A DNA stretch of 64,000 nt from Bdellovibrionales bacterium (lineage in GTDB: Bacteria > Bdellovibrionota > Bdellovibrionia > Bdellovibrionales > JAUICD01): assembly GCA_965203275.1 (NCBI GenBank), contig OZ241865.1, positions 1,600,001 through 1,664,000 on the forward strand. The letters run 5' to 3'. The notes below the pieces were generated by a model, which made no database searches, was not told the DNA's origin, and saw only the letters and a list, made by a program, of their open reading frames with translations. The position numbers and the translations under genes were made by a program. Shown one piece after another: positions 229 through 64,000 of the stretch. Within the stretch, counting starts at the first letter, position 1. Each line of letters begins with the position of its first letter.

Positions 229-401
229 TATACTATAATTAATTTCTACTGTTGTAGATAAACTTTACTGTTAATCCTAGTATATTGTATTTAAAGCTAT
301 AGGAGTTAAACTACCAACAAAGCCCTATAGCAAAAATGTCAATTTATATAAAAGAGTTTCTTTATTGCACAAACCGCTTGCTCCTAAGGTAATAAAAACA
401 C

Positions 402-881
402 TTTTTCCTTAACATGCTACAGAGGAATGAAGAGATCCTCCCTACTCAAAGTGAACAGGCTTTCTAGGCGATGACCATTTTATCGACGTGAAGTAAACAT
501 CTTGTTTCCTTAACATGGTGTTAAGAAAAGAGGAGATCCTCCTTACTAAAAATAAACGGATTTTTGAGGCAATCAGCCTTTGATCGACGGCGATAAGCCG
601 TCGGGCTAACTGCCATTAGAAGGATATTTTCCTTAACATGGTGTTAAGAAACGAAGATATCCTCCCCTACTCAAAATGCATAATTTTTTGAGGCAATGAC
701 CATTTTGCCAATGGTGAAAGCCATTGCGGTCATTGCCCAAAAACATGCCAGAGGCATGATGCATTTTGAGTGAAAAAGACAGCTAGTTCAATTTTAGGGA
801 AACAGAGGCTGGTTTATTTTTAGTGAGACAAACGTGGTCATCGCCAGAAAGTGACCAGAGGTCAGTTCACTTTGAGTGAAA
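402..881 (+). mobile_element. Nested cluster of three family-A structured elements plus one orphan right end
   Basis: Three TTTCCTTAACATG heads; stem pairs 444-456/865-877, 545-557/812-824, 669-681/759-771. Confidence 0.8.
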
Positions 882-993
882 CAACATAGATTGTCCAAAA
901 TTCTGCCACAAAACAAAAAACCTAGTGGCACAAAATCTCTTTCGACTCATAACCTACTGCTCAACTTTATTTTTGCAGGCTATCAAACTCAGG

Positions 994-37191: not shown

Positions 37192-37225
37192 ATTTCACTA
37201 ATTATTTGTGACGACATGCATCGTT

Positions 37226-37535
37226 TGTCTCACTAAAAGTGGTCTGACCTCTGGTCACTTTCTGGTTGCCAGCCGAAGGCTATCGCCTTCTTATCTTTTT
37301 CACTAAAAATAAACCAGCCTCTGGCTGTTTTTGGGCATTGCTCTGACAGCTTACGCTGTCTAAAAAGAGCAATGCCTCAAAAATCCGTTTATTTTTAGTA
37401 GGGAGGATCCCTTCGTTTCTTAACACCATGTTAAGGAAAAAGTTCCTTCATCACTTGCTGGCAACCTAGAAAGCTTGACCACTTTTAGTAGGGAGGATCT
37501 CCTCGTCTCTTGACTACATGTTAAGGAAAAAGTTC
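37226..37535 (-). mobile_element. Family-A element nested inside a second family-A element
   Basis: Outer stem 37232-37244/37477-37489; inner stem 37302-37314/37387-37399; two heads ending GTTAAGGAAAAAGTTC. Confidence 0.85.
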
Positions 37536-37627
37536 GTATTTTTGTTTTTTTATTTTTTTAGATTCTGCGTAATTCTCAAAAAAAATATAAATATTATGAG
37601 TGGGAGGCGGAGGCAGGCTGGAGGAGT

Positions 37628-37965
37628 TGTCTCACTAAAAGTAAACTGGCCTCTGGCCACTTTTGAGCTGGATCTTCAATTTATTTCTTAAATTTCAAAA
37701 TCATTGCCCTGAGACCAGACTCTTTCCCATTCATATCATTAGCTTTTAAAAAACTTCATCTTATTGGGCTTTGAATTTCTGTACTTACAAATAAAAAATC
37801 TGGATGCGAATGGTAATGGACAATGACCGCAAAGGCTTTCGCCGTCGATCAAAGGCTAACTGTCCAAAAGCAACCAGAGGTTGGTTTACTTTTAGTGAAA
37901 CAGAGGTGTGGCTCATTTTGAGTGAAAATGATGGCTAGTTCAATTTTAGGGAAACAGAGGCTGGG
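37628..37965. repeat. Family-A fragments and stacked right ends
   Basis: CACTAAAAGTAAACTGGCCTCTGGCCA near 37633; CAACCAGAGGTTGGTTTACTTTTAGTGAAA and further ends from about 37870. Confidence 0.7.
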
Positions 37966-39540: not shown

Positions 39541-39831
39541 ATGTTAAGAAATGAGGATATTCTCTCTACTAAAAATAAACGGATTTTTGAGGCAGTTAGC
39601 CTTTGATCGACGGCGGTAGCCGTCGGGCTAACTGACCAAAAGTAGCCAGAGGTCAGTTCACTTTGAGTGAACCAAAAGGAAATCTTTTTCCTTAACATGG
39701 TGTTAAGAGACGAGGAGATCCTCCTTACTCAAAGTGAACAGGCTTTTGAGACAATGACCATTTTGCCAATGGCGAAAGCCATTGCGGTCATTGTCCAAAA
39801 GTGACCAGAGGTCAGTTCACTTTGAGTGAAA
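39541..39831 (+). mobile_element. Two tandem family-A elements (first chimeric, second complete)
   Basis: Second: stem 39727-39739/39815-39827; first: ACTAAAAATAAAC left arm with GTTCACTTTGAGT right arm. Confidence 0.85.
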
Positions 39832-39890
39832 TAAACCTACTTTAAAAAAAAGATTTTGTAAAATAAATAATATAAAAAAGGAGGCAAAAT

Positions 39891-40508: not shown

Positions 40509-40738
40509 TTGCTAGCCGAAGGCTTTCGCCTTCTTATCTTTTTCACTAAAAGTAAACTGACCTCTGGTCACTTTTGGATAGCCAGCCCGACGGCTACCGC
40601 CGTCGATCAAAGGCTGGCTATCTCAAAAGTCCGTTTACTTTTAGTAAGGAGGATCTCTTCGTCTCTTTACACGATGTTAAGGAAAAAATTCTTTCATCAA
40701 TGCTGGCAACCTAGAAAGCTTGACCACTTTTAGTGAAA
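40509..40738 (-). mobile_element. Complete family-A element nested in a partial outer element
   Basis: Inner stem 40545-40557/40633-40645; outer flanks nearly identical to those at 37265-37489. Confidence 0.85.
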
Positions 40739-40744
40739 GTCAAA

Positions 40745-40793
40745 TACGTACGGGTAGATGAAAATAAACGAAATTAGATAATAAAAGGCCCGA
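40745..40793 (+). repeat. Family-C bipartite repeat, copy 1
   Basis: TACGTACGGGTAGA-N9-ACGAAATTAGATAATAAAAGGCCCGA. Confidence 0.8.
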
Positions 40794-40991
40794 GAAGAAA
40801 GGATTGAAAATAATACATACAACAAAAAGTATATATATAGGATATTATGTAATGGGCTTCTGACCGATCTCCTCAAAATTGACCTTTCAACTCTCTGAAA
40901 AGTTCTTGATTTGGTGAATGTACGAGATTAGAGAAGAAAATTCAAGGAGGGGAAATTTTGAGGGGGACAATGCACGTATCTCTGAAAAAAG

Positions 40992-41040
40992 TACGTACGG
41001 GTAGACGGACATCGACGAAATTAGATAATAAAAGGCCCGA
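40992..41040 (+). repeat. Family-C bipartite repeat, copy 2
   Basis: Same two boxes with a different 9-nt spacer. Confidence 0.8.
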
Positions 41041-41046
41041 AAATAG

Positions 41047-41075
41047 TTGACAATAGATTCCAGTGGTGTTATCCT
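41047..41075 (+). promoter_or_regulatory. Sigma70-type promoter of the EEP hydrolase gene
   Basis: TTGACA-17 nt-TATCCT with extended TG; AAGGAGG RBS near 41130. Confidence 0.6.
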
Positions 41076-41141
41076 TCGCAAAGGATAATGATTTATATAT
41101 TTATTAATATTTAAAAACCAACAAACAAAAGGAGGTTTGTT

Positions 41142-42322
41142 ATGAAAATTTTACGTAATTTTATTATTTGTAATGCAGTTTTAGCTTTTAACTTCTTAAC
41201 TCCGGGCTTTGCTGTGGTTGCCCCCCCCCCCCCCCCCCATCTAACGCAGTGAGTCAACCATCCCATGAATTGAAAGTCGTTACATTCAATACATGGCTTT
41301 TAGAGCTTTTTGGTCTCGATGCTGCCTCTGATATATCCCCTAGAAGGCAGATTATGGTTAACGCATTCAATGAGATGGAGGCTGATGTTTTAGCACTTCG
41401 AGAAGTGTGGCCTCACAAGCACCGTCAATTTTTAGTCGATAATCTTTCAGAAAAATATCCTTATTGTACTTATGATTCAATGCCTGCTGAACACTCTAGG
41501 CGTAATCCTCTAGCTACAGTGGCTTCCAATAGTACTGCTTCTGCTGGTATTATTAGTGGTCTTATGATTTTTTCTAAATATCCTATAGAGAATGCCTCTC
41601 AAGAGAAAGATGAGCTAGGTTGCATTACCCCTGCTCATACATTAAAGTTTTCTCAAAATACACCTCGATGGGATGAACAAGCTGTCCATAAAGGTGCTAT
41701 TCATATTGTGATACATCATCCTACTTTAGGTTCTATAGATGTATACAATTCTCATTTTGATGCTTTAGATTTTGATGAGGAGGTTGTTGATTATAAAGAA
41801 GACAGTAAGACTGTAAGTCGTCTTCAGGCAAATGAGTTCATTGACTTTGTATTGTATACACAGTCTCATGCCCATCAGGTTATAGCTATAGATATCAATC
41901 AACATTTTAGAACATGGAATCGTAACAGAGAAGAATCTGCAGTAAGTCAGCACTATCAACATATTGTCTCTAACCTCAATGTAATAGATACTTTTATGTT
42001 GGCTAATAATTACAATCCAGAAACACTGACAGGTGTTTACACTGTTGATACGTTGAATAATGTTTATACTGGTGCTGAGGAAAATCTAGGTACTCGTTCT
42101 TTTGCAAATATTCAAGATTCGTTTACTGAAGGTATTGTATCTCGACCTTCTACTCTGTTGGATTATATTTGGTATATTGGTGATGGATTGGAATCTGCTG
42201 AATCTAATCTCATTTTTACAAGAGAAGTACAGCTTTACGCAGATGAATTTGATCTTGATGACAGAAGACATTTATCAGATCATTATGGGGTGATGAGTGT
42301 TTTAACTCTTACAAATGAATAG
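41142..42322 (+). CDS. Secreted endonuclease/exonuclease/phosphatase (sphingomyelinase-like) hydrolase, out of frame at a C18 tract
   Basis: RBS plus signal peptide from 41142; VTFNTW, ADVLALREVW, SGLMIFSKYPI, LDYIW, LSDHYGV. Confidence 0.8.
41221..41238 (+). repeat. Poly-C homopolymer (C18)
   Basis: 18 consecutive C in an AT-rich sequence. Confidence 0.95.
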
Positions 42323-44883: not shown

Positions 44884-44971
44884 AGGGAGGATCCTTTTAT
44901 TCCTTTACAGCATATTAGGGAAAAATTCTTTTATTACCTCAAGAGCAAACAAGCTTACAAATGAAACTCTT
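44884..44971 (-). repeat. Family-A head variant with extended leader, homologous to 352-443
   Basis: Reverse complement AAGAGTTTC...TTGCTCTTGAGGTAATAAAA...TTTTTCCCTAATATGCT...GATCCTCCCT. Confidence 0.7.
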
Positions 44972-44986
44972 TTTTCCTTAACATCA

Positions 44987-45043
44987 TGTTTATCCGGGAT
45001 CTGGGATCCGGGATCTGGCAGTCAGGCAAACCGGCATCTAAAG
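44987..45043 (+). repeat. Family-B GC-rich repeat
   Basis: TGTTTATCC-(GGGATC[C/T])x3...GGCAAACCGGCATCTAAA. Confidence 0.75.
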
Positions 45044-45197
45044 GAACTTTTTCCTTAACATGTAGTCAAAAAACGAAGGGATCCTCCCCTACTCAAAATG
45101 CATAATTTTTTGAGGCAATGACCATTTTGCCAATGGCGAAAGCCATTGCGGTCATTGCCCAAAAACATGCCAGAGGCATGATGCATTTTGAGTGAGA
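45044..45197 (+). mobile_element. Complete stand-alone family-A element (reference copy)
   Basis: GAAC head; stem 45091-45103/45181-45193; CAATGGC-GAAA-GCCATTG; CATGCC-AGA-GGCATG. Confidence 0.88.
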
Positions 45198-45260
45198 CAA
45201 AAGGTCTATAATTCGTCAAAGTGGTTCGTCTTTGTTTGTTTCTAAGTTAAAATTTCTTAT

Positions 45261-46868
45261 GTGTTGAATATTTGGAGTCTTCTACTAATGAACAAGACTT
45301 TTGTTGTAAGACAAGCTTGCCTTTTTTGTAAAAAATATATATGCATTTTAGGCATTGTTCACAGCCTGAGTAGCACAGCTTATGGATCCCCGCAAGATAG
45401 AGATGACTTTCTCAAACAAATAGATCAGATGAATTATGTTTCTCTTATTTTTGTAGGACAAGATTTAAGCTCACCTGTTTCGTCTTTTGGTCATATTCTT
45501 TTAGCCTTTCATCGTGAAGTACTCATTGAGCCGGAAGCTCTCACTGTGGAATATCATGGCGATTTTCAAGCTCCTTTTTTCTTGATAAGATCACTGTTTT
45601 GGTCAGTGCCAGGTGTTTTTCGTATGCGTTCATGGAACAAACGTTTTTGGGAATATGAAAAAGAAGATAGAGATATATGGGTGATCCCCTTAAGATTAGA
45701 ATATAAAGAAAAACAACAGCTCATCATGGAGATCAAAGCTTCTCTTGATCATGTAAGGCCTTATAATTTTTTCTTACATAATTGTGCTTCTTACCTTCTT
45801 AAAATACTCAGGAAATCTGTCAATGCAACATGCCCCGGAAAGCTCTACACTTCCCCTATGGGAGTGTTGCAATCTCTTTATAAATGCCAAAGAATAAATG
45901 GCACTATCTATATGCCATCAGGAATGACACGCTTAATGGAATCTGTCAAAAACTTAAATGCCCAAGATAAAATTTTGTTTAAAAAACTTATCTCACAGAA
46001 AAAATCCACCCACTACAATTATCTCAAATCTCTCTCTCAAGAAGCCTCTATTTCACTTAAAACATCTATCACAGAATGGATTGATTATAAAATCCCTCGA
46101 ACAAATCAAACACAAGATAAAGATCAACTCATCCAACTTAAAAAACACTATCATCATCCATTGCCAAGCCAACATAAAGATTTAACAGAGATATATTCTC
46201 CTCGTAGCTCTCGTTTAACTTTGCAATATTGGCAAAGGTATAGAACACTTCTGTTGACTTTTTCGCCTACTCAAATGAGGTTTTTAAGTGCATTAAATAA
46301 TTCCCTTTGGGCAGATCAATTTGAGGTTTTAACTTTTGGACTGGGTTTTAATTTCTCTTCTAAAAAGTTATTTCTCTCTCATATAAAACTTTTGGATATC
46401 AGTACAAATACAACCGCACATATAATGAAAATCCCATTTGCAAAGGATGTTTATTTAGGTTATCAAAAATATTCTATAGGTACAAAAGGCTCTGTGAATT
46501 TTTGGGAGCATTTTCAAGCCCGGTTAGGAGGAGGGCTTGCTTATGCCTTAACAGATTATTGGAAGTTTGTGTTTTTAGCTTTTGGACAAACAGGTATTGT
46601 AGGAGATAAAGAAAGAAAATATTTTTCTATAGGTGGAGGCGTAACAGGAAGAATGTTTTTGCGTTTTTCAAGTTGGATGCGTTTAAAAACTCAATTTCAT
46701 CAAGTGCTAATAGGTTACAACACATTAATCCCTCAAATAGGGCAAGCACAGTTTGTTTTTTATGATTATAAGTCATTTGTAGCTAGTCTTGACTATGAAA
46801 TCTTTCATGTTAAAAAAGAAGATCAATGGCATCATTCTCTTGGAGCTTCTTTGAGTTATCTTTTTTGA
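45261..46868 (+). CDS. DUF4105/Lnb-like domain protein
   Basis: SSFGHILL, YEKEDRDIW, YNFFLHNCA; C-terminal Phe. Confidence 0.75.
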   Translation: MLNIWSLLLMNKTFVVRQACLFCKKYICILGIVHSLSSTAYGSPQDRDDFLKQIDQMNYVSLIFVGQDLSSPVSSFGHILLAFHREVLIEPEALTVEYHGDFQAPFFLIRSLFWSVPGVFRMRSWNKRFWEYEKEDRDIWVIPLRLEYKEKQQLIMEIKASLDHVRPYNFFLHNCASYLLKILRKSVNATCPGKLYTSPMGVLQSLYKCQRINGTIYMPSGMTRLMESVKNLNAQDKILFKKLISQKKSTHYNYLKSLSQEASISLKTSITEWIDYKIPRTNQTQDKDQLIQLKKHYHHPLPSQHKDLTEIYSPRSSRLTLQYWQRYRTLLLTFSPTQMRFLSALNNSLWADQFEVLTFGLGFNFSSKKLFLSHIKLLDISTNTTAHIMKIPFAKDVYLGYQKYSIGTKGSVNFWEHFQARLGGGLAYALTDYWKFVFLAFGQTGIVGDKERKYFSIGGGVTGRMFLRFSSWMRLKTQFHQVLIGYNTLIPQIGQAQFVFYDYKSFVASLDYEIFHVKKEDQWHHSLGASLSYLF

Positions 46869-51860: not shown

Positions 51861-52160
51861 CACTAAAAGTGAACTGTTTCCCTCAATCTATTTCACTCAA
51901 AATGGTCAAGCTTTTGAGGCGGTTAGCCTTTGATCGACGGCGGTAGCCGTCGGGCTAACTATTAGAAGGATGTTTTCCTTAACATGTAGTCAAAAAACGA
52001 AGATATCCTCTTTACTAAAAGTAAACGGACTTTTGAGGCATTGCTCTTTTTAGACAGCGTATAGCTGTCAGAGCAATGCCCAAAAGTAGCCAGAGGCTAG
52101 TTTACTTTTAGTGAAACAGAGGCATGATGCATTTTGAGTGAAATGTTAAGGAAAAAGTTC
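51861..52160 (+). mobile_element. Family-A cluster: complete inner element between outer halves, plus an inverted head
   Basis: Inner stem 52014-52026/52100-52112; extra right end starting CAGAGG at 52117. Confidence 0.85.
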
Positions 52161-52213
52161 TTTTTGATGCCGGGTTGCCAGATCCCAGATCCCAGATCCC
52201 ACCCGGATAAACA
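52161..52213 (-). repeat. Family-B GC-rich repeat
   Basis: Reverse complement TGTTTATCCGGGT-(GGGATCT)x3-GGCAACCCGGCATCAAAAA. Confidence 0.75.
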
Positions 52214-58438: not shown

Positions 58439-60466
58439 TTATTTATACTCTACTATATTTTTTTGTATTTCACCTTCAATAGACCTTAAAAGCCCTTTAA
58501 CTGCATCTAATAAATCTCGGTTAGAAATAGTACCTCCTTGCAATGTGATGGCAAGGCCTCCTAGGTAGCTTTTATCCTGAATAAATTGTCTGATAGATCT
58601 GAGATGAGGAAAATATTTTTTGAGAGAAGAAAATTGAAAAAACACATTATGAGAGATTGCATTATAGACAATGTGCAAAGGTATATCTTTGACTTCCTGC
58701 TTGCTTTTTTCTTTTGTATTTTGCATAGAGTTTTTTTGATTGCTCATCACTTGAGAGATAGAACCTTCACCAGTCACAATGTTGTGTTGATAATTCTTAG
58801 CAGACACTCCCATATCAGATAGAGATTGGACATAACGATATTTATTTCTCACTCTTTTATTTATGTAGATTAAACCATGTTTGTAAAAACTTGTTTTTTT
58901 AAAACTATCTTTTAATTGAAGTTGAACAGGCTTTCTTGACTGCGGAATAATACCTGACTCTCTAAGTGCATCTTGAATCTCTTTAATATATGAAGCTTCG
59001 TTAATACTATGATAATGTAGTTGTTCTAAAACCCTTAGATCACATTGTTGGTCGTCGTCAAATTTTCTCATATAGAGATTGTCTATTGGAGTTATAGAAA
59101 AAGGGAAATACCTAGCCCCTCGACCAATCAGCTGGGCTTCTCTCATGGTGGTTTTATTCATTTTTTTTATGCTTTCATAGCAACGTACAATATCAAATAA
59201 ATTAAGAACATCCCATCCCTCGTTGAGTTTTTCCACTGCAAAAATAGCTCTTATGACATTATTTTTATCTTCTAATGTATTAAGCAATATTTGTAGATGT
59301 TCTTTTTCTAAATCTTTATTAACAGATAAACAGTGTTTTTCTTGAAACTCTTTACGTAATCTTTTTGCTAATTGATAGTGATTGATTTGATAATTCTTGA
59401 AAAAATCAAAAGCTTTTTGAATCAAATGAATTTTGGACTTTCTTTGGATCCTTTCTATATCTTTCGGTTCTAATTCATCTATCATTTTATGAAAGTTCAT
59501 TTTATTTTCTTTAGATTGGGCGATAGTTTTTTCTGCTTTAAAGAGAATCACTGGTTTAAGATGGATGCGGTGTTCTTGAGCTATATTTTGCTTGTATTGA
59601 CTTAAAATAATAGCTTGCAGTATGCGGTCCTTTTGTTCTAAGTCTGTTTGTACAATACACACATCTTTAGAGTAGCCATCTTCATAAAAATTTTTGAGAT
59701 CATATCTATATAAAATTTTATTGCGATATTTATTGATAATATTTTCATCATTATAATTTAACGTGGCCGTAAACTCTAATAATAAATTTTCTGCATTTTG
59801 GTTGAAAATTTTTTCTATAGTGTTTTCCCATGAAGGTTTTCTCTGATCTTCAAGGTCCATTTGAGACGGGGTATGAGTGGTTTTAGTGCTGAAGTGATGG
59901 GCTTCATCAGCTAAAAGCACTATCTTTTTATTTTTAAAGTCTTGAAAGGTCAGGGCATTTTCTTTTTCTTCTTTGAGGTCAGTGTGTAACTTTTGAATAG
60001 TGGTAAAACAAATATTGATATTTTTGTCATTGACTCCCTCAAAGTTATTTACCAATGAGGTGTGAATTCTCTGATCACCTATAGAGATATCTTCTTTAAA
60101 AAGGTACTTAGAAGATGATGGATTCAAAAAGTTGCTTTTTGTTTTTTCTAAAATAGTGGTGGAGTCTACAAAAAATAAAAAATTCCTATAGCCGTTTTTA
60201 TAGAGCTTAAGAATAAGTCCAGCCATTATAAGTGTTTTTCCGCTACCTGTGGCCATATTAAAAAGCAAATGTAATGATTTGTTTTTTTGATGGCTTTCTA
60301 AATGATGGATAAAATAAGCAAAAGCTTCTTCTTGATAAGGACGTAAAGGGAAGCGAGGGTTTAGGTTATTTTTTATATAAGATGGAACGTTTATATTTAG
60401 ATGTTTGTGTTTCTTAAGTGTATCAAGTTCTTCATATAAAAACTGTTCATTCATTATTATCTCCAT
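58439..60466 (-). CDS. res: Type III restriction enzyme Res subunit, probably C-terminally truncated
   Basis: MATGSGKT, LADEAHH, EFTAT, LNEGWDV, QLIGRGAR; no nuclease motif recognised. Confidence 0.85.
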   Translation of the reverse strand: MEIIMNEQFLYEELDTLKKHKHLNINVPSYIKNNLNPRFPLRPYQEEAFAYFIHHLESHQKNKSLHLLFNMATGSGKTLIMAGLILKLYKNGYRNFLFFVDSTTILEKTKSNFLNPSSSKYLFKEDISIGDQRIHTSLVNNFEGVNDKNINICFTTIQKLHTDLKEEKENALTFQDFKNKKIVLLADEAHHFSTKTTHTPSQMDLEDQRKPSWENTIEKIFNQNAENLLLEFTATLNYNDENIINKYRNKILYRYDLKNFYEDGYSKDVCIVQTDLEQKDRILQAIILSQYKQNIAQEHRIHLKPVILFKAEKTIAQSKENKMNFHKMIDELEPKDIERIQRKSKIHLIQKAFDFFKNYQINHYQLAKRLRKEFQEKHCLSVNKDLEKEHLQILLNTLEDKNNVIRAIFAVEKLNEGWDVLNLFDIVRCYESIKKMNKTTMREAQLIGRGARYFPFSITPIDNLYMRKFDDDQQCDLRVLEQLHYHSINEASYIKEIQDALRESGIIPQSRKPVQLQLKDSFKKTSFYKHGLIYINKRVRNKYRYVQSLSDMGVSAKNYQHNIVTGEGSISQVMSNQKNSMQNTKEKSKQEVKDIPLHIVYNAISHNVFFQFSSLKKYFPHLRSIRQFIQDKSYLGGLAITLQGGTISNRDLLDAVKGLLRSIEGEIQKNIVEYK

Positions 60467-60531
60467 TTGATTTTTGTTTAATATGCTTAAGTGTGTTTGA
60501 TATCTATTGTGATTTTAACTTGAAATAATCT

Positions 60532-62523
60532 TTAGTTTTCATTATTTTCGTCATCATCGTCTTCTGTGTCATCTTGTATTTGAAAGAAGCTTTTGTTAAG
60601 TGTTTTATCTTCTTCACTGACTTGAAAGTCCTCATCTTCTATTTCTGAAAGATGAACATAAAGTTGATTTTTGTTAAGCAGTTCCATTAATAACTTTTTT
60701 TGTTCTTTTATGCCTTGCCCCTTCCCTACTTGAATAAAATCCTTTATAGCTTCTTCTGGCCTTTTATGATTGACATACCAGTTTAAAAAAGAGTTTTTAG
60801 AGATGTCTTTCCATAAACCTAAAAGTTCATCAGTAGACTTTGCGTCTTGAATTTTATCGATATAAGTTGCGTTGTACTTCATCAACTGGCAAGAAATAAA
60901 ATCACCTTTTTGGCTTTTTTTAATTGTGTGTAATACTCGTGGAATAGTGACAGTGTTGATGTAATCCATTTGTTCACAAAGAATAAACTTTCTATCCCCT
61001 TGATCTTCTAAATTAAGTTCTAAAACAGCTTCTGCTGTTGTACCAGAACCTGCAAAAAAATCCAAAATTATATCATTATGAGTTGTTGTGATTCGAATAA
61101 TATCTTTTATTAAATGTTTTGATTTTGGATAGCTGAAAATATTATTTTTATTAAATATTTCTTTTAAAATCTTTGTTCCATGAGATGAAGCATCGTAACG
61201 TGAATCCATCCAGATTGTCTTGGGCCTCTGACCTTCTTTTATTCTATCTTTTAATTGAACAATAAAATTATGAGATTTGTTTTTTTTAATTTTGATTTCA
61301 TTGTTTTTAACAGCTTCTTTAAACCTTTCCTGTGATTGTCGCCAGACCCTTTTATTTCCATCTGAATCTAATGGAATAATTTCTGTTGCTCCTTTGCTTT
61401 TTTTCAAACTAATATCACCTGTATTTTCATTATAAAAAATAGAATAAAATAAATTCGGTCGATCATCAGGTGTGGAATTTGAGCCACCCCTTCTAAAGGG
61501 AGACCACCTATAACTAGAAACTTCGTCTTTTTCCTTAAAAGAGTTTTTTTGATCTTCTGTTAAAGGTAAGGAATGTATGGAAGCTAGTTCTTTTTCTTTA
61601 GCATATACAAGAAAAAACTCAGAAGATGTAGCAAAAAACTTTGAATCACTCCTCCCACCCGGATTGGTTTGTACAGAAATAATACCAATTCTATTTTCTC
61701 TTGAAAAAATTTCATCTGCAAGGACACCAAGATATAAGAGTTCTTCATGATCTATTGCAATGACTATAATCCCATTATCAGAGAGCAGTTCCTTTGCAAT
61801 ATCTAATCTGTTTTTCATAAAAGTTAGCCAGTGGGAATGATTAAATTCATTATTATATAAAAATGTGTTAGCATCTCCTTTTGTATTAAAAGGTGGATCG
61901 ATATAAATAAGTTTTATCTTGTTGTGAAACTGACTTTTAAGTGTATGAAGTGTAGAAAGATTATTACCTTTGATTATCAAGTTTTCTGTGATGATCTCAT
62001 TGTCATCTCTTTGTATTTCTTTTACTTTTTTAGTAGCGGAAGGTGTATGTCTTTTCCAATAAGTTAAAACCTTAGGATCAAAAAATCTATTGATCTCGTC
62101 TTCTGCTAAAGTTTCATTAAAAAATATTTCTCTTTGATTTTTTGTGTCTTCTTTGGTCTGCCCTCCTTCTAAAACACAGTCTTTATAGGGCCAGACAAGT
62201 GATATATCTTTTGTTGCTTTAAAAGGTCTATCACCTAATTTGAGTCCGATTTTGTTTCTAAATCGAGTATAAGAGTTAGATAAAAAGTTTTTATCAGACA
62301 TATAATCAATAAAAGCATTGGTATTAAAAACCAAGCTATCAGATACTTTGTTGAAGAACTTAGACTTAACTTGATGATCTTGCAGTAAAAGTGCAATAAG
62401 TTGATGGTCCATTTTCCAAGCTTTATCTATAATAGCTTTTTGAAGTAAATGGTTATTTTTGTCTAATAAACGAGAATCTCTTTTGAGTAAACCTACAAGC
62501 CTATTGTGAAAATTTTGCTCCAT
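60532..62523 (-). CDS. mod: Type III RM adenine methyltransferase Mod subunit
   Basis: IYIDPPF followed by DFFAGSGTT (beta class); adjacent to res. Confidence 0.92.
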   Translation of the reverse strand: MEQNFHNRLVGLLKRDSRLLDKNNHLLQKAIIDKAWKMDHQLIALLLQDHQVKSKFFNKVSDSLVFNTNAFIDYMSDKNFLSNSYTRFRNKIGLKLGDRPFKATKDISLVWPYKDCVLEGGQTKEDTKNQREIFFNETLAEDEINRFFDPKVLTYWKRHTPSATKKVKEIQRDDNEIITENLIIKGNNLSTLHTLKSQFHNKIKLIYIDPPFNTKGDANTFLYNNEFNHSHWLTFMKNRLDIAKELLSDNGIIVIAIDHEELLYLGVLADEIFSRENRIGIISVQTNPGGRSDSKFFATSSEFFLVYAKEKELASIHSLPLTEDQKNSFKEKDEVSSYRWSPFRRGGSNSTPDDRPNLFYSIFYNENTGDISLKKSKGATEIIPLDSDGNKRVWRQSQERFKEAVKNNEIKIKKNKSHNFIVQLKDRIKEGQRPKTIWMDSRYDASSHGTKILKEIFNKNNIFSYPKSKHLIKDIIRITTTHNDIILDFFAGSGTTAEAVLELNLEDQGDRKFILCEQMDYINTVTIPRVLHTIKKSQKGDFISCQLMKYNATYIDKIQDAKSTDELLGLWKDISKNSFLNWYVNHKRPEEAIKDFIQVGKGQGIKEQKKLLMELLNKNQLYVHLSEIEDEDFQVSEEDKTLNKSFFQIQDDTEDDDDENNEN

Positions 62524-62611
62524 TAGGATACCTTATTTTATTCTTTTTAAAATTTCCACTTCTTAAATCTTTTTTAAGATAACTTTGTATATCCACCAGG
62601 TCAAACTTTTG

Positions 62612-63026
62612 GTTCACTAAAAGTGGTCTAGCCTCTGTTTCACTCAAAATAAATCATGCCTCTGGCATGTTTTCTGGCAGTTAGCCTTTGATCGACGGCG
62701 TGAGCCAAAAGGTGTAAGAAAGAACTTTTTCCTTAACATGGTGTTAAATGAGAAATGGATCCTCATTACTAAAAGTGGTCAGGCTTTCTAGGCAATGACC
62801 ATTTTATCGACGGCGAGAGCCGTCGTGGGCATCGCTCAGGGTGTAAGAAGGAACTTTTTCCTTAACATGTGGTCAAGAGACGAGGAGATCCTTCTTCCTA
62901 AAATTGAACAAGCTTTTGAGGTAGCTAGCCTTTGATCGACGACGAAAGTCGTCGGGCTGGCTACCCAAAAGTAGCCAGAGGCTAGTTCAATTTTAGGGAA
63001 ACCGAGGCTAGACCACTTTTAGTGAG
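62612..63026 (+). mobile_element. Family-A cluster: inverted right ends followed by a nested pair
   Basis: Outer stem 62768-62780/63011-63023; inner stem 62897-62909/62985-62997; heads at 62722 and 62851. Confidence 0.85.
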
Positions 63027-64000
63027 TTAGTGTAAAAGGTCTTCTGGTGTGGTTTTCAAAGACCGTGCTGTGCGTATTAAAGTGCTATATTTAATAAATG
63101 GACTCTGATATTGGCGATTAAAGCTTTTTTCAATATAAATAGGCAAAGGGTTACCATAAGCTTTTTGCATTTTTCTCTTAATGCGACGTCTCAGTCGATT
63201 TAAAAACTTCTTAATGCTGTCAGGATGTACCTTCTCTCTTTTTATTTGAAGAGGATTTATGAGAGATGTGATATCTTCATTGCCAACTATTTGTGAAATA
63301 GGTACTCCCACAATAACAGATAATTTAAAAAGGGTCACAAGGAAAATATCCGGTGTATTTTGCCAGCCAATTATCTTTTTTACAAATTTGCTGTGCAATT
63401 GTGCTGTATTTAGAATTTGAGGTATACGATTTTTAGTGAGGGCTTCTACTTTGTTTTTTAATAAAGTTTCTTTTTCTATAGTAGACTCTTTAACATTTTC
63501 AAAAATATCAAAATTAATTTTCTCAAATTGTTCTATGTCATTTTCTAAATTCTTTAAGAGGCTAGATACATCTACGTGTAACGCCTTAGTTAGTTTGAAA
63601 AAAAGATAATAGGAATTTATTGTGCCTGTCTCAAGCAGGTCTTTTAATTCAGCATGTCTGATACCAATGGCCCTAGATAATTGTTTCACAGATAAATCAG
63701 ATGAAATCATTTGTTGTTTCAAATAATAAACAAAAAGTCTTTTAGCTTTTTCTATATAGTCATTTGATAATTGCTTTGTTTTAAAACGATTGGCATGAAC
63801 TAAGCTTTCGATATCACTTTGACCAATAAGTTGCCACAATTTTATATCTAAAGCGTGTGCAATTTTTAGAAGTACTGTCAATGAAACATTTAAACTCAAA
63901 CCATGATTGGCACGATAAGATGGAATGACTTTGCGTATGGATTTTCTAATAGAAAACCCTTGATTTTGAAGTGATTCAAAGATATCATGTATGCGAGTTC
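63027..64000 (-). CDS. Protein with several XRE-like HTH repeats (5' end outside window)
   Basis: Repeated LLKIAHALDI / FKLTKALHV / LFKLSVIVGV / LIRTARSLKT; frame is open to the window edge. Confidence 0.65.
   Translation of the reverse strand, partial: TRIHDIFESLQNQGFSIRKSIRKVIPSYRANHGLSLNVSLTVLLKIAHALDIKLWQLIGQSDIESLVHANRFKTKQLSNDYIEKAKRLFVYYLKQQMISSDLSVKQLSRAIGIRHAELKDLLETGTINSYYLFFKLTKALHVDVSSLLKNLENDIEQFEKINFDIFENVKESTIEKETLLKNKVEALTKNRIPQILNTAQLHSKFVKKIIGWQNTPDIFLVTLFKLSVIVGVPISQIVGNEDITSLINPLQIKREKVHPDSIKKFLNRLRRRIKRKMQKAYGNPLPIYIEKSFNRQYQSPFIKYSTLIRTARSLKTTPEDLLH

Follow-up and report, generated by a model that had tools for sequence, protein, structure and literature searches.

A dispersed repeat with a conserved three-way-junction fold is associated with four-helix-bundle gene cassettes in two species of Bdellovibrionales

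The locus described here raises the question of what kind of element a dispersed and strongly folded repeat, hereafter family A, is and by what route its copies are made. The stretch of DNA analysed (the window) is 64,000 nucleotides long and sits on one 2.568-Mb contig of a 2.57-Mb Bdellovibrionales genome, referred to as G000, with G001 standing for the genome of a sister species and G004 for a mixed bin.

Organization of the focal copy and its neighbours

The focal repeat is a full copy of family A on the + strand (45044-45200) and consists of a head, a three-way-junction core and a short A-rich 3' tail. The head (45048-45090, +) is the near-invariant TTTCCYTAACAT, an imperfect inverted repeat about a 3-5-nt centre with a purine-rich stretch and a small GATC hairpin; its sequence is kept across species, and head alleles are almost unlinked to the core. 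The core (45091-45193, +) comprises, all on the + strand, the outer stem P1 (45091-45103/45181-45193), the linker J1/2 (45104-45106), P2 (45107-45123/45150-45165, with a bulged A at 45113), a T-rich bulge starting at 45124, P3 with a GAAA loop forming the GCGNNAGC mini-hairpin (45131-45148), and P4 with an AGA loop (45166-45180). The possibility that the head is a dif-like site was set aside, as its spacing does not appear to fit the dif consensus.

Abutting the focal head is a heptamer arm (44991-45047, +) made of GGGATCY units decaying to GGCA-type ones and followed by a 9-nt purine-rich leader. The array is of the same type as the arms of the four-helix-bundle gene cassettes found elsewhere in G000, while no four-helix-bundle gene was found within the 64-kb window, where the focal copy is accompanied by the heptamer arm only. 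An orphan head, belonging to an older A copy, is cut at the start of the arm (44970-44990, +), and orphan-head/heptamer-arm joints of this kind show one and the same distance in 84 of 102 cases. An inverted orphan head (- strand) together with one arm of a second repeat, family B, occupies positions 44889-44958.

Seven complete copies had been listed in the initial annotation, and all of them were confirmed in place and strand, with a column identity of 71% when aligned. A nested cluster at 399-883 (+) holds two 3'-cut copies, the full copy 620-781 and stacked 3' ends, and another one at 37222-37906 contains the full copy 37293-37448 (-) within an older copy, a family B arm and pieces. A 5'-cut copy and the full copy 39682-39836 form a head-to-tail pair upstream of a divIVA-like gene (39542-39836, +), and the full copy at 40536-40694 (-) interrupts an older copy at its T-rich bulge. 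The cluster at 51891-52200 includes a partial copy, the full copy 51966-52123 (+), a stacked 3' end and an inverted orphan head with a heptamer arm (52180-52200, -), and the one at 62632-63020 consists of pieces, a 3'-cut copy (62719-62837), the full copy 62848-63007 (+) and a stacked 3' end.

Family B is a long-hairpin repeat of about 110 nt carrying an A-rich linker at one side and, opposite it, a G-quadruplex-like block. It is present in G000, G001 and the contaminant contigs of G004 and is often a target of A; in the window it is found at 44889-44958 and 37540-37670. Two copies of another dispersed module (family E) lie at 40700-41100 of the window, in the gap that separates the A copy at 40536 from the following gene, and about 17 consecutive C residues are found near 41225. 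At 58439-63899, an A cluster is flanked by a type III restriction-modification pair and by a repeat HTH protein.

Abundance and taxonomic range

Using a profile made from the seven copies, 1,367 matches were obtained in G000, 765 of them near-full, so that family A makes up 6.3% of the genome; 21 of the matches fall within the window. Of the near-full copies, 691 were parsed and 74 were left out owing to a missing landmark; the full-copy set forms 361 clusters. Only 162 private substitutions were counted across 613 distinct G000 copies, and the family is on this basis young or undergoing homogenisation.

In a covariance-model survey with about 20 candidates scored per genome, three of the 141 genomes from the order yielded family A, as did one of 150 from the phylum, the 149 others of the phylum yielding none. 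Its presence in a second genus, represented by G004, was rejected: the copies lie on three small contigs, the rplN of which is 97% identical to that of G001 and 81% identical to a second rplN, located on a main G004 contig. Two rplN genes in the bin mean that it is mixed and that the small contigs come from a foreign, G001-like organism; a perfect family-level co-occurrence of A with PF05635 falls with this record. Among the genomes searched, family A is thus limited to one genus. In a pattern scan of genomes, 33 of 34 stretches among the matches listed came from one sister genome, and a single head-like match belonged to an unrelated genome having no profile match to A. Phage and plasmid collections and viral and metagenome pattern scans gave no match, and no description of the repeat was found in the published literature searched.

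The copies in G001 possess their own allele set and a 14-nt repeat expansion of the P4 loop; in many of them (e.g. L022:8635-8817, L034, L043) the loop is enlarged by one to seven tandem 14-nt units, the unit itself resembling a fold-back duplication of the loop. A long variant in G000 carries an additional hairpin in the J1/2 linker in 17 near-identical copies (e.g. C1:78850-79026), and a different additional hairpin is found at the same J1/2 place in the G004 contaminant contigs (L085, L086). Contigs C1, C4 and C11 of G004 are those of the different G001-like organism and bear three A copies and one B copy between rpsQ and rplN. Contigs from a run labelled as a sponge metagenome match unique genes of L084 (G000 C1:813001-833000) with 96-100% identity at low depth, which may serve as a habitat hint only.

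Conservation of the fold

The three-way junction proposed for the focal copy is well supported by folding, with z-scores of -8.6 (DNA) and -7.5 (RNA) and none of 200 shuffles being equally stable. Perfectly paired arms in G000 were found in 557 of 691 copies for P1, 646 of 691 for P2a, 511 of 691 for P2b (10 nt), 653 of 669 for P3 and 660 of 691 for P4, meaning that the perfect pairing earlier ascribed to the outer stem is common genome-wide but not universal. The six outer-stem types that had been described do exist in the window, although the seven listed copies bear five of them and the sixth is located in partial copies; the same applies to the TGG side stem, which exists in the window but in partial copies outside the seven.

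When 40 diverse copies taken from G000, G001 and the G004 bin were aligned, pairing was seen in 95.7% of cells versus 77.3% when shuffled and 34-46% in slid registers, and both sides are changed in 30 of 40 pairs versus 23.0 in shuffles, the relatedness of the copies remaining in all these figures. A control on covariation free of relatedness is provided by linkage, as it tracks the fold and not distance: normalised mutual information between paired arms is 0.66 for P1 left and right, which lie 100 nt apart, 0.80 for P2a, 0.92 for P3 and 0.88 for P4, whereas P1-left gives only 0.15 with the adjoining head segment and 0.29 with P3. The P1 arms are matched in 550 of 628 copies versus 92 expected, 40 of 72 P1 × P3 allele combinations were observed, and the outer arms are matched in 254 of 297 copies bearing a minority inner allele. 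Copies of A recombine freely, with matched-arm copies prevailing; arm-to-arm templated correction without selection could also give arm matching.

The + strand is the folded strand. Stems with a single mismatch, read on this strand, contain G·T/T·G in 155 copies (46 types) versus A·C/C·A in 35 copies (20 types; p=0.002 on types), and this wobble bias exists despite strand-symmetric private substitutions (C>T 42, G>A 38, A>G 18, T>C 12), so it arises in what is propagated. Pairing, linkage along the fold and the + strand wobble bias together bear out the earlier statement that structure rather than sequence is conserved.

The tip GCGNNAGC is present in 555 of the 691 G000 copies. In G000, 64% of the tetraloops are GNRA and a third break this pattern, the apical loops GGTA, GATA and GACA (GNYA, non-GNRA) occurring in 223 copies; in G001 the GC-GNNA-GC form accounts for only about 13 of 48 apical loops, and T·A-closed loops are common. 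A mini-hairpin of the GCGNNAGC type is described in an excerpt of PMC13037366 as far stabler in DNA than in RNA. Single-stranded DNA is somewhat favoured over RNA as the folded form of A.

Insertion sites and joints

None of the 691 full copies lies within an ORF (retained ORFs of at least 100 aa; ORFs with more than 25% repeat excluded), and the orientation in co-directional gaps is near even (198 sense, 161 antisense), which fits a fold serving the element's own copying. The suggestion of a functional ssDNA or RNA fold holds as regards the conserved fold, but a function for the host is unsupported. The 3' ends of A face genes more often than the 5' ends do, and at closer range.

Almost every 5' end abuts another repeat, namely older A pieces, heptamer arrays or arms of the second hairpin family, through a variable, purine-rich joint. 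The 3' end is fixed 3-9 nt past the strong stem, while the 5' ends are ragged. In 94 distinct G001 tails the successive 3' positions are G in 94, A in 92, A in 70, A in 79, C in 61, A in 75 and G in 54, becoming random thereafter, and these counts fit an end at GTGAA(A) ahead of a pyrimidine-purine (YR) step. Family A nests in older copies, mostly replacing 25 bases or fewer with no fixed target duplication; when up to 25 nt were allowed in the search, target loss was seen in 169 of 251 filled/empty pairs, with no modal duplication and with positive overlaps scattered over 1-117 nt. One identical joint was found on a number of different host alleles, so conversion contributes to the spread of joints, and the independent events are fewer than the counts.

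The idea that insertion removes the 3' arm of the target hairpin was found to be unsupported (31 vs 37 of 75 joint classes). When contigs of four runs were compared with a 20-kb stretch for empty sites or excision footprints, there were repeat-to-repeat joints only and no usable empty site, and no insertion intermediate, empty site or transcript of A was seen.

Association with four-helix-bundle gene cassettes

The heptamer arrays beside A heads, which we took to be a mark of the four-helix-bundle family, brought this family under suspicion, and the assumption was then tested. PF05635 has 14 matches in G000 and 19 in G001. The 101-aa four-helix-bundle protein scores above the TIGR02436 cut-off, is similar to XCC0516 both by sequence and by predicted fold, and has a predicted fold matching 2gsc and 2rld; it is basic (19 K/R vs 8 D/E) and contains no known catalytic motif, although Q, R, S, N, E and G residues are conserved. 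In the nine intact ORFs, 34 variable codons are synonymous-only versus 11 amino-acid-changing. The cassette is 440 bp long and includes a heptamer arm, a hairpin over the ribosome-binding site, the ORF and a second heptamer arm. PMC4990558 describes 2gsc as a homopentameric ring, reports a 23S intervening sequence in which heptamers lie ahead of an ORF of this kind, and cites a hypothesis that the ORF serves mobility; in an excerpt of PMC10053308, PF05635 is linked to Avd.

Family A is tied physically to these cassettes in two species, which is new, and in the literature searched no gene-less structured passenger of four-helix-bundle cassettes was found. In G000 an A head in the same orientation lies within about 90 nt of the stop codon in nine of nine intact cassettes, and A lies no more than 150 bp from 38 of 39 cassette loci versus 437 of 1825 genes (24%). 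By the same limit it is close to 200 of the 221 heptamer arrays, with an array present in 170 of 423 A clusters. As for G001, A is located inside or within about 200 nt of 11 of 19 cassettes versus 7 of 53 background genes from four regions chosen irrespective of A (p=3e-4), and the same comparison gives 2 of 16 regions for Rpn nuclease genes (p=0.012) and 5 of 20 for pilins (p=0.054). There are at least three insertion sites inside the cassette, one of them at the same codon of the gene in both species, and the five insertions sharing a single codon in G001 may all go back to one old event; since the cassette copies are related, all these counts overstate independent events. Only 2 of 72 G001 heads have an upstream heptamer arm, and the orientation of A relative to the cassette is variable. 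Derivation of the A head from the cassette leader was rejected, with only two G001 leader variants beating the background and the motif being explained by gene-start pairing.

PF05635 is widespread, with 56 of the 141 order genomes containing it, and expansion in the absence of A was seen in at least five genomes, G004 (main contigs), G021, G113, G025 and G095; in the sampled regions of such genomes the cassette itself is the main dispersed repeat. No A was detected with an RNA model beside 80 metagenomic relatives. Cassettes with 6-7-mer arms are multicopy and dispersed in several Bdellovibrionales (e.g. G000 L084:6120-6422; also G004, G021, G025, G095 and G113), and in G021, G025, G031, G035, G095 and G113 they are often arranged as head-to-head gene pairs with one hairpin over both ribosome-binding sites.

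Other candidate partners

A neighbouring HUH, integrase or RT gene, proposed earlier as something to look for, was searched for and not found, the consistent neighbour of A being the four-helix-bundle gene cassette. Family models, phmmer, tblastn and our own profiles detected no RT, IS110 or Y1 in G000; a Y2 search gave no match in any control genome. The two tyrosine recombinases of G000 (307 and 187 aa) do not adjoin the A clusters examined. G001 has one IS200-type TnpA, not flanked by A, with the nearest piece about 1.8 kb away, and three RT matches, none flanked by A as a unit. Matches to the TnpB domain in G000 turned out to be Cas12-type ORFs of 1,340-1,370 aa. Among the resident insertion sequences of G000, presumably IS256-like and IS1634-like, A lies within 150 bp of 3 of 11 and 2 of 9, respectively, which is the background rate. 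RecA, MutS and RNase III are present in G000, and SbcD was not found there. By sequence appearance, Cas12a-type proteins are encoded at C1:235349-244554 of G000 in split or paired ORFs of 982 and 1,325 aa, accompanied by cas1- and cas2-like genes and by about 30 copies of a Cas12a-type repeat handle.

Other multicopy families of G000 are equally rich in A: it is found near 17 of 17 YhgA-type and 14 of 14 PDDEXK_2-type Rpn genes and near 7 of 7 members of an 829-aa family, so co-location may reflect tolerated sites and co-duplication. PF04754 has 16 matches in G000, 18 in G001 and one on a genus-like G004 contig, with none in 57 other genomes except G003, and PF12784 has 14 in G000 and 5 in G001. 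The Rpn catalytic motifs, D..EHKS and D..EVQT, are intact. Rpn genes are expanded only in G000, G001 and G003, the last of which possesses 16 of them and no A. Among the genomes examined, Rpn and PF05635 are both expanded only in the two A-bearing species; as it concerns two lineages, this coincidence is a hint and does not amount to a test.

The approximately 30 Rpn-type genes of G000 belong to two families (e.g. C1:1039298-1040491, C1:105337-106374) and have variable C-terminal tetrapeptide repeats; several are split by A at recurring codons, and the ends of duplicated copies seem to lie no farther than about 10 nt from the stop codon. An 800-aa-type family (e.g. C1:1233001-1235490) has a signal peptide, a ClpA-N-like region and long tandem 60-aa helix-turn-helix-like repeats, and one query found no member of it in G001-G004. 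According to PMC5350276, RpnA is a non-specific endonuclease lacking sequence or structure specificity; the 3'-OH ends it leaves prime polymerase, and it promotes RecA-independent replacement, for which a template-switch model is given. Rpn proteins are treated as anti-phage toxins in an excerpt of PMC10400941.

Comparison with known repeats

Family A is not an Rfam family: there was no Rfam match at gathering score and none at E<=5 for 44900-45300. Correia, RUP and ERIC are MITE-type repeats of about 150 bp with hundreds of intergenic copies and strong secondary structure. Family A is similar to them in size, intergenic copies and structure, but it has no terminal inverted repeats and no fixed target-site duplication, and its paired stem is subterminal with the 45-nt head outside, in line with the earlier view that it is not a MITE. 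Nor is it a CRISPR array, as had also been held. Compared to an integron attC array, it shows no gene-linked orientation, and neither of the only two tyrosine recombinases lies beside the A clusters examined.

A close likeness is to REP, BIME and REPIN sequences, which, according to PMC3116915 and PMC3333891, are, like A, high-copy, intergenic, hairpin-forming, non-autonomous and clustered in mosaics, with selection acting on the folded unit and not on a host gene. Family A is repetitive, extragenic and palindromic, as REPs are. In the same sources, a REPIN is an inverted doublet of 20-40-bp REPs associated with a single-copy transposase, the RAYT (TnpA-REP, a Y1 HUH enzyme), whereas A joins a single branched core of 100 nt to a separate head conserved in sequence, is associated with multicopy four-helix-bundle cassettes, and shows nested insertion with target loss and no RAYT found. 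The REP tag is of the GTAG/CGTC type in an excerpt of PMC3733652, and no such tag is present in the invariant columns of the A alignment. Family A acts like a REPIN, yet shows no RAYT, no doublet, no terminal repeats and no fixed target duplication, and represents a novel form within the known kind of non-autonomous selfish palindromic repeats.

On the side of the protein, the ORF-bearing 23S rRNA intervening sequences (S23p/IVP, PF05635, TIGR02436), as presented in PMC4990558, encode the same protein family as the partner cassette and resemble it in the heptamers upstream of the ORF and in the hairpin that covers the ribosome-binding site. The cassettes of G000 and G001, in contrast, number 14-19 and are scattered among protein genes, and A itself has no ORF. 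In diversity-generating retroelements, which combine Avd, an RT and a structured RNA, Avd, according to PMC10053308, has a structural relationship to PF05635 and acts together with a structured nucleic acid to replace DNA in a template-directed manner; unlike these systems, G000 has no RT, no adenine mutagenesis and no template/variable repeat pair.

Discussion

It is very probable that family A is a selfish element under selection on its fold. With much less assurance, we suggest tentatively that it is a non-autonomous selfish element whose + strand folds and which is inserted with the help of the four-helix-bundle protein. Under this proposal the + strand would fold, probably as single-stranded DNA, into the three-way junction, and the basic, putatively ring-forming protein would bind the folded A and/or the heptamer arms and hold the former at a nick or stalled fork within another hairpin repeat. 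The nicks may possibly come from the many Rpn nucleases of the host. The host polymerase would then switch to A at the 3' tail through 1-4 nt of microhomology, copy through the head and return to the target a few bases on. Joints once established would spread between copies by RecA-type gene conversion, and only matched-arm recombinants would keep copying, giving the mix-and-match stems.

Two other routes are considered unlikely. One is that A is propagated by Rpn (YhgA/PD-(D/E)XK) nucleases together with gene conversion and template switching by the host polymerase, the four-helix-bundle protein playing no part and A lying beside the cassettes merely since those are dispensable, hairpin-rich sites. 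The Rpn expansion in both species, the intact catalytic motifs and the proximity of all 17 and all 14 genes to A in G000 agree with it, and the nicking, 3'-OH priming and template switch described for RpnA in PMC5350276 are the activity that the A joints would need. Against this stand the 16 Rpn genes of G003 with no A and the mere 2 of 16 Rpn regions with A within 200 bp in G001; moreover, as RpnA is non-specific in that source, selection on the three-way junction and the invariant head would be left unexplained. The other route, to which we give a similarly low weight, is that A is a REPIN-like or IS200/IS91-like ssDNA element whose HUH enzyme has been lost, is missing in the assembly or is too divergent. 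The strand-specific fold, the DNA mini-hairpin loop, the fixed 3' end before YR, the lack of target duplication and the BIME-like clusters would suit such an element, and G000 is scored 90% complete and G001 does have one IS200-type TnpA. Y1 was absent from G000, though, by family models, phmmer, our own HMM and tblastn, the G001 TnpA is without flanking A, and, the copies being young (162 private substitutions in 613 distinct ones), the enzyme should still be near. Y1 strand transfer is precise, and the ragged 5' joints and target loss are unlike it.

Propagation through an RNA copy, with read-through transcripts trimmed to the junction and reverse-transcribed at breaks in trans with an Avd-like chaperone, seems quite improbable. 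It would account for the fixed 3' end with ragged 5' ends, for wobble of the G·U type and for the GNRA share of 64%, and T·A-closed loops and three RT matches are found in G001, with PF05635 resembling Avd in the excerpt of PMC10053308; but RT is absent from G000, a third of the tetraloops break GNRA, private substitutions are strand-symmetric with no adenine excess, and the head is kept in most copies, whereas a promoter-borne RNA would shed upstream sequence. A host-functional RNA or DNA site (an mRNA stabiliser, a processing signal, a nucleoid or recombination site) is very unlikely: strong fold conservation in two species with different allele sets and 3' ends facing genes more often and more closely speak for it, but orientation is near even (198:161), nesting destroys older copies, genes are interrupted, and A is absent from the rest of the family and from the order and phylum samples.

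To return to insertion aided by the four-helix-bundle protein, a broader reading, which we regard as a doubtful though conceivable one, is that a class of bacterial mobile DNA lacking transposases owes its mobility to IVP/Avd-like proteins, which recognise folded single strands, both those of their own heptamer-armed cassette and those of A as a gene-less parasite, and deliver them to breaks or stalled forks for template switching by polymerase. A mobility role of the IVP ORF is only proposed in PMC4990558.

Family A fills 6% of a small genome, is apparently young and has the usual transposases and RTs out of reach, all of which points to an undescribed copying route. Structures of the four-helix-bundle/IVP family were solved years ago, and to our knowledge no function has been assigned to it. 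If the broader reading is true, family A would give this four-helix-bundle mobile class its first recognised non-autonomous passenger and a ready-made substrate; being natural and allele-rich, with compensatory variants, this substrate makes IVP function testable. Even if the protein is a bystander, family A is a clean case of selection for shape, in DNA or RNA, acting through recombination between copies.
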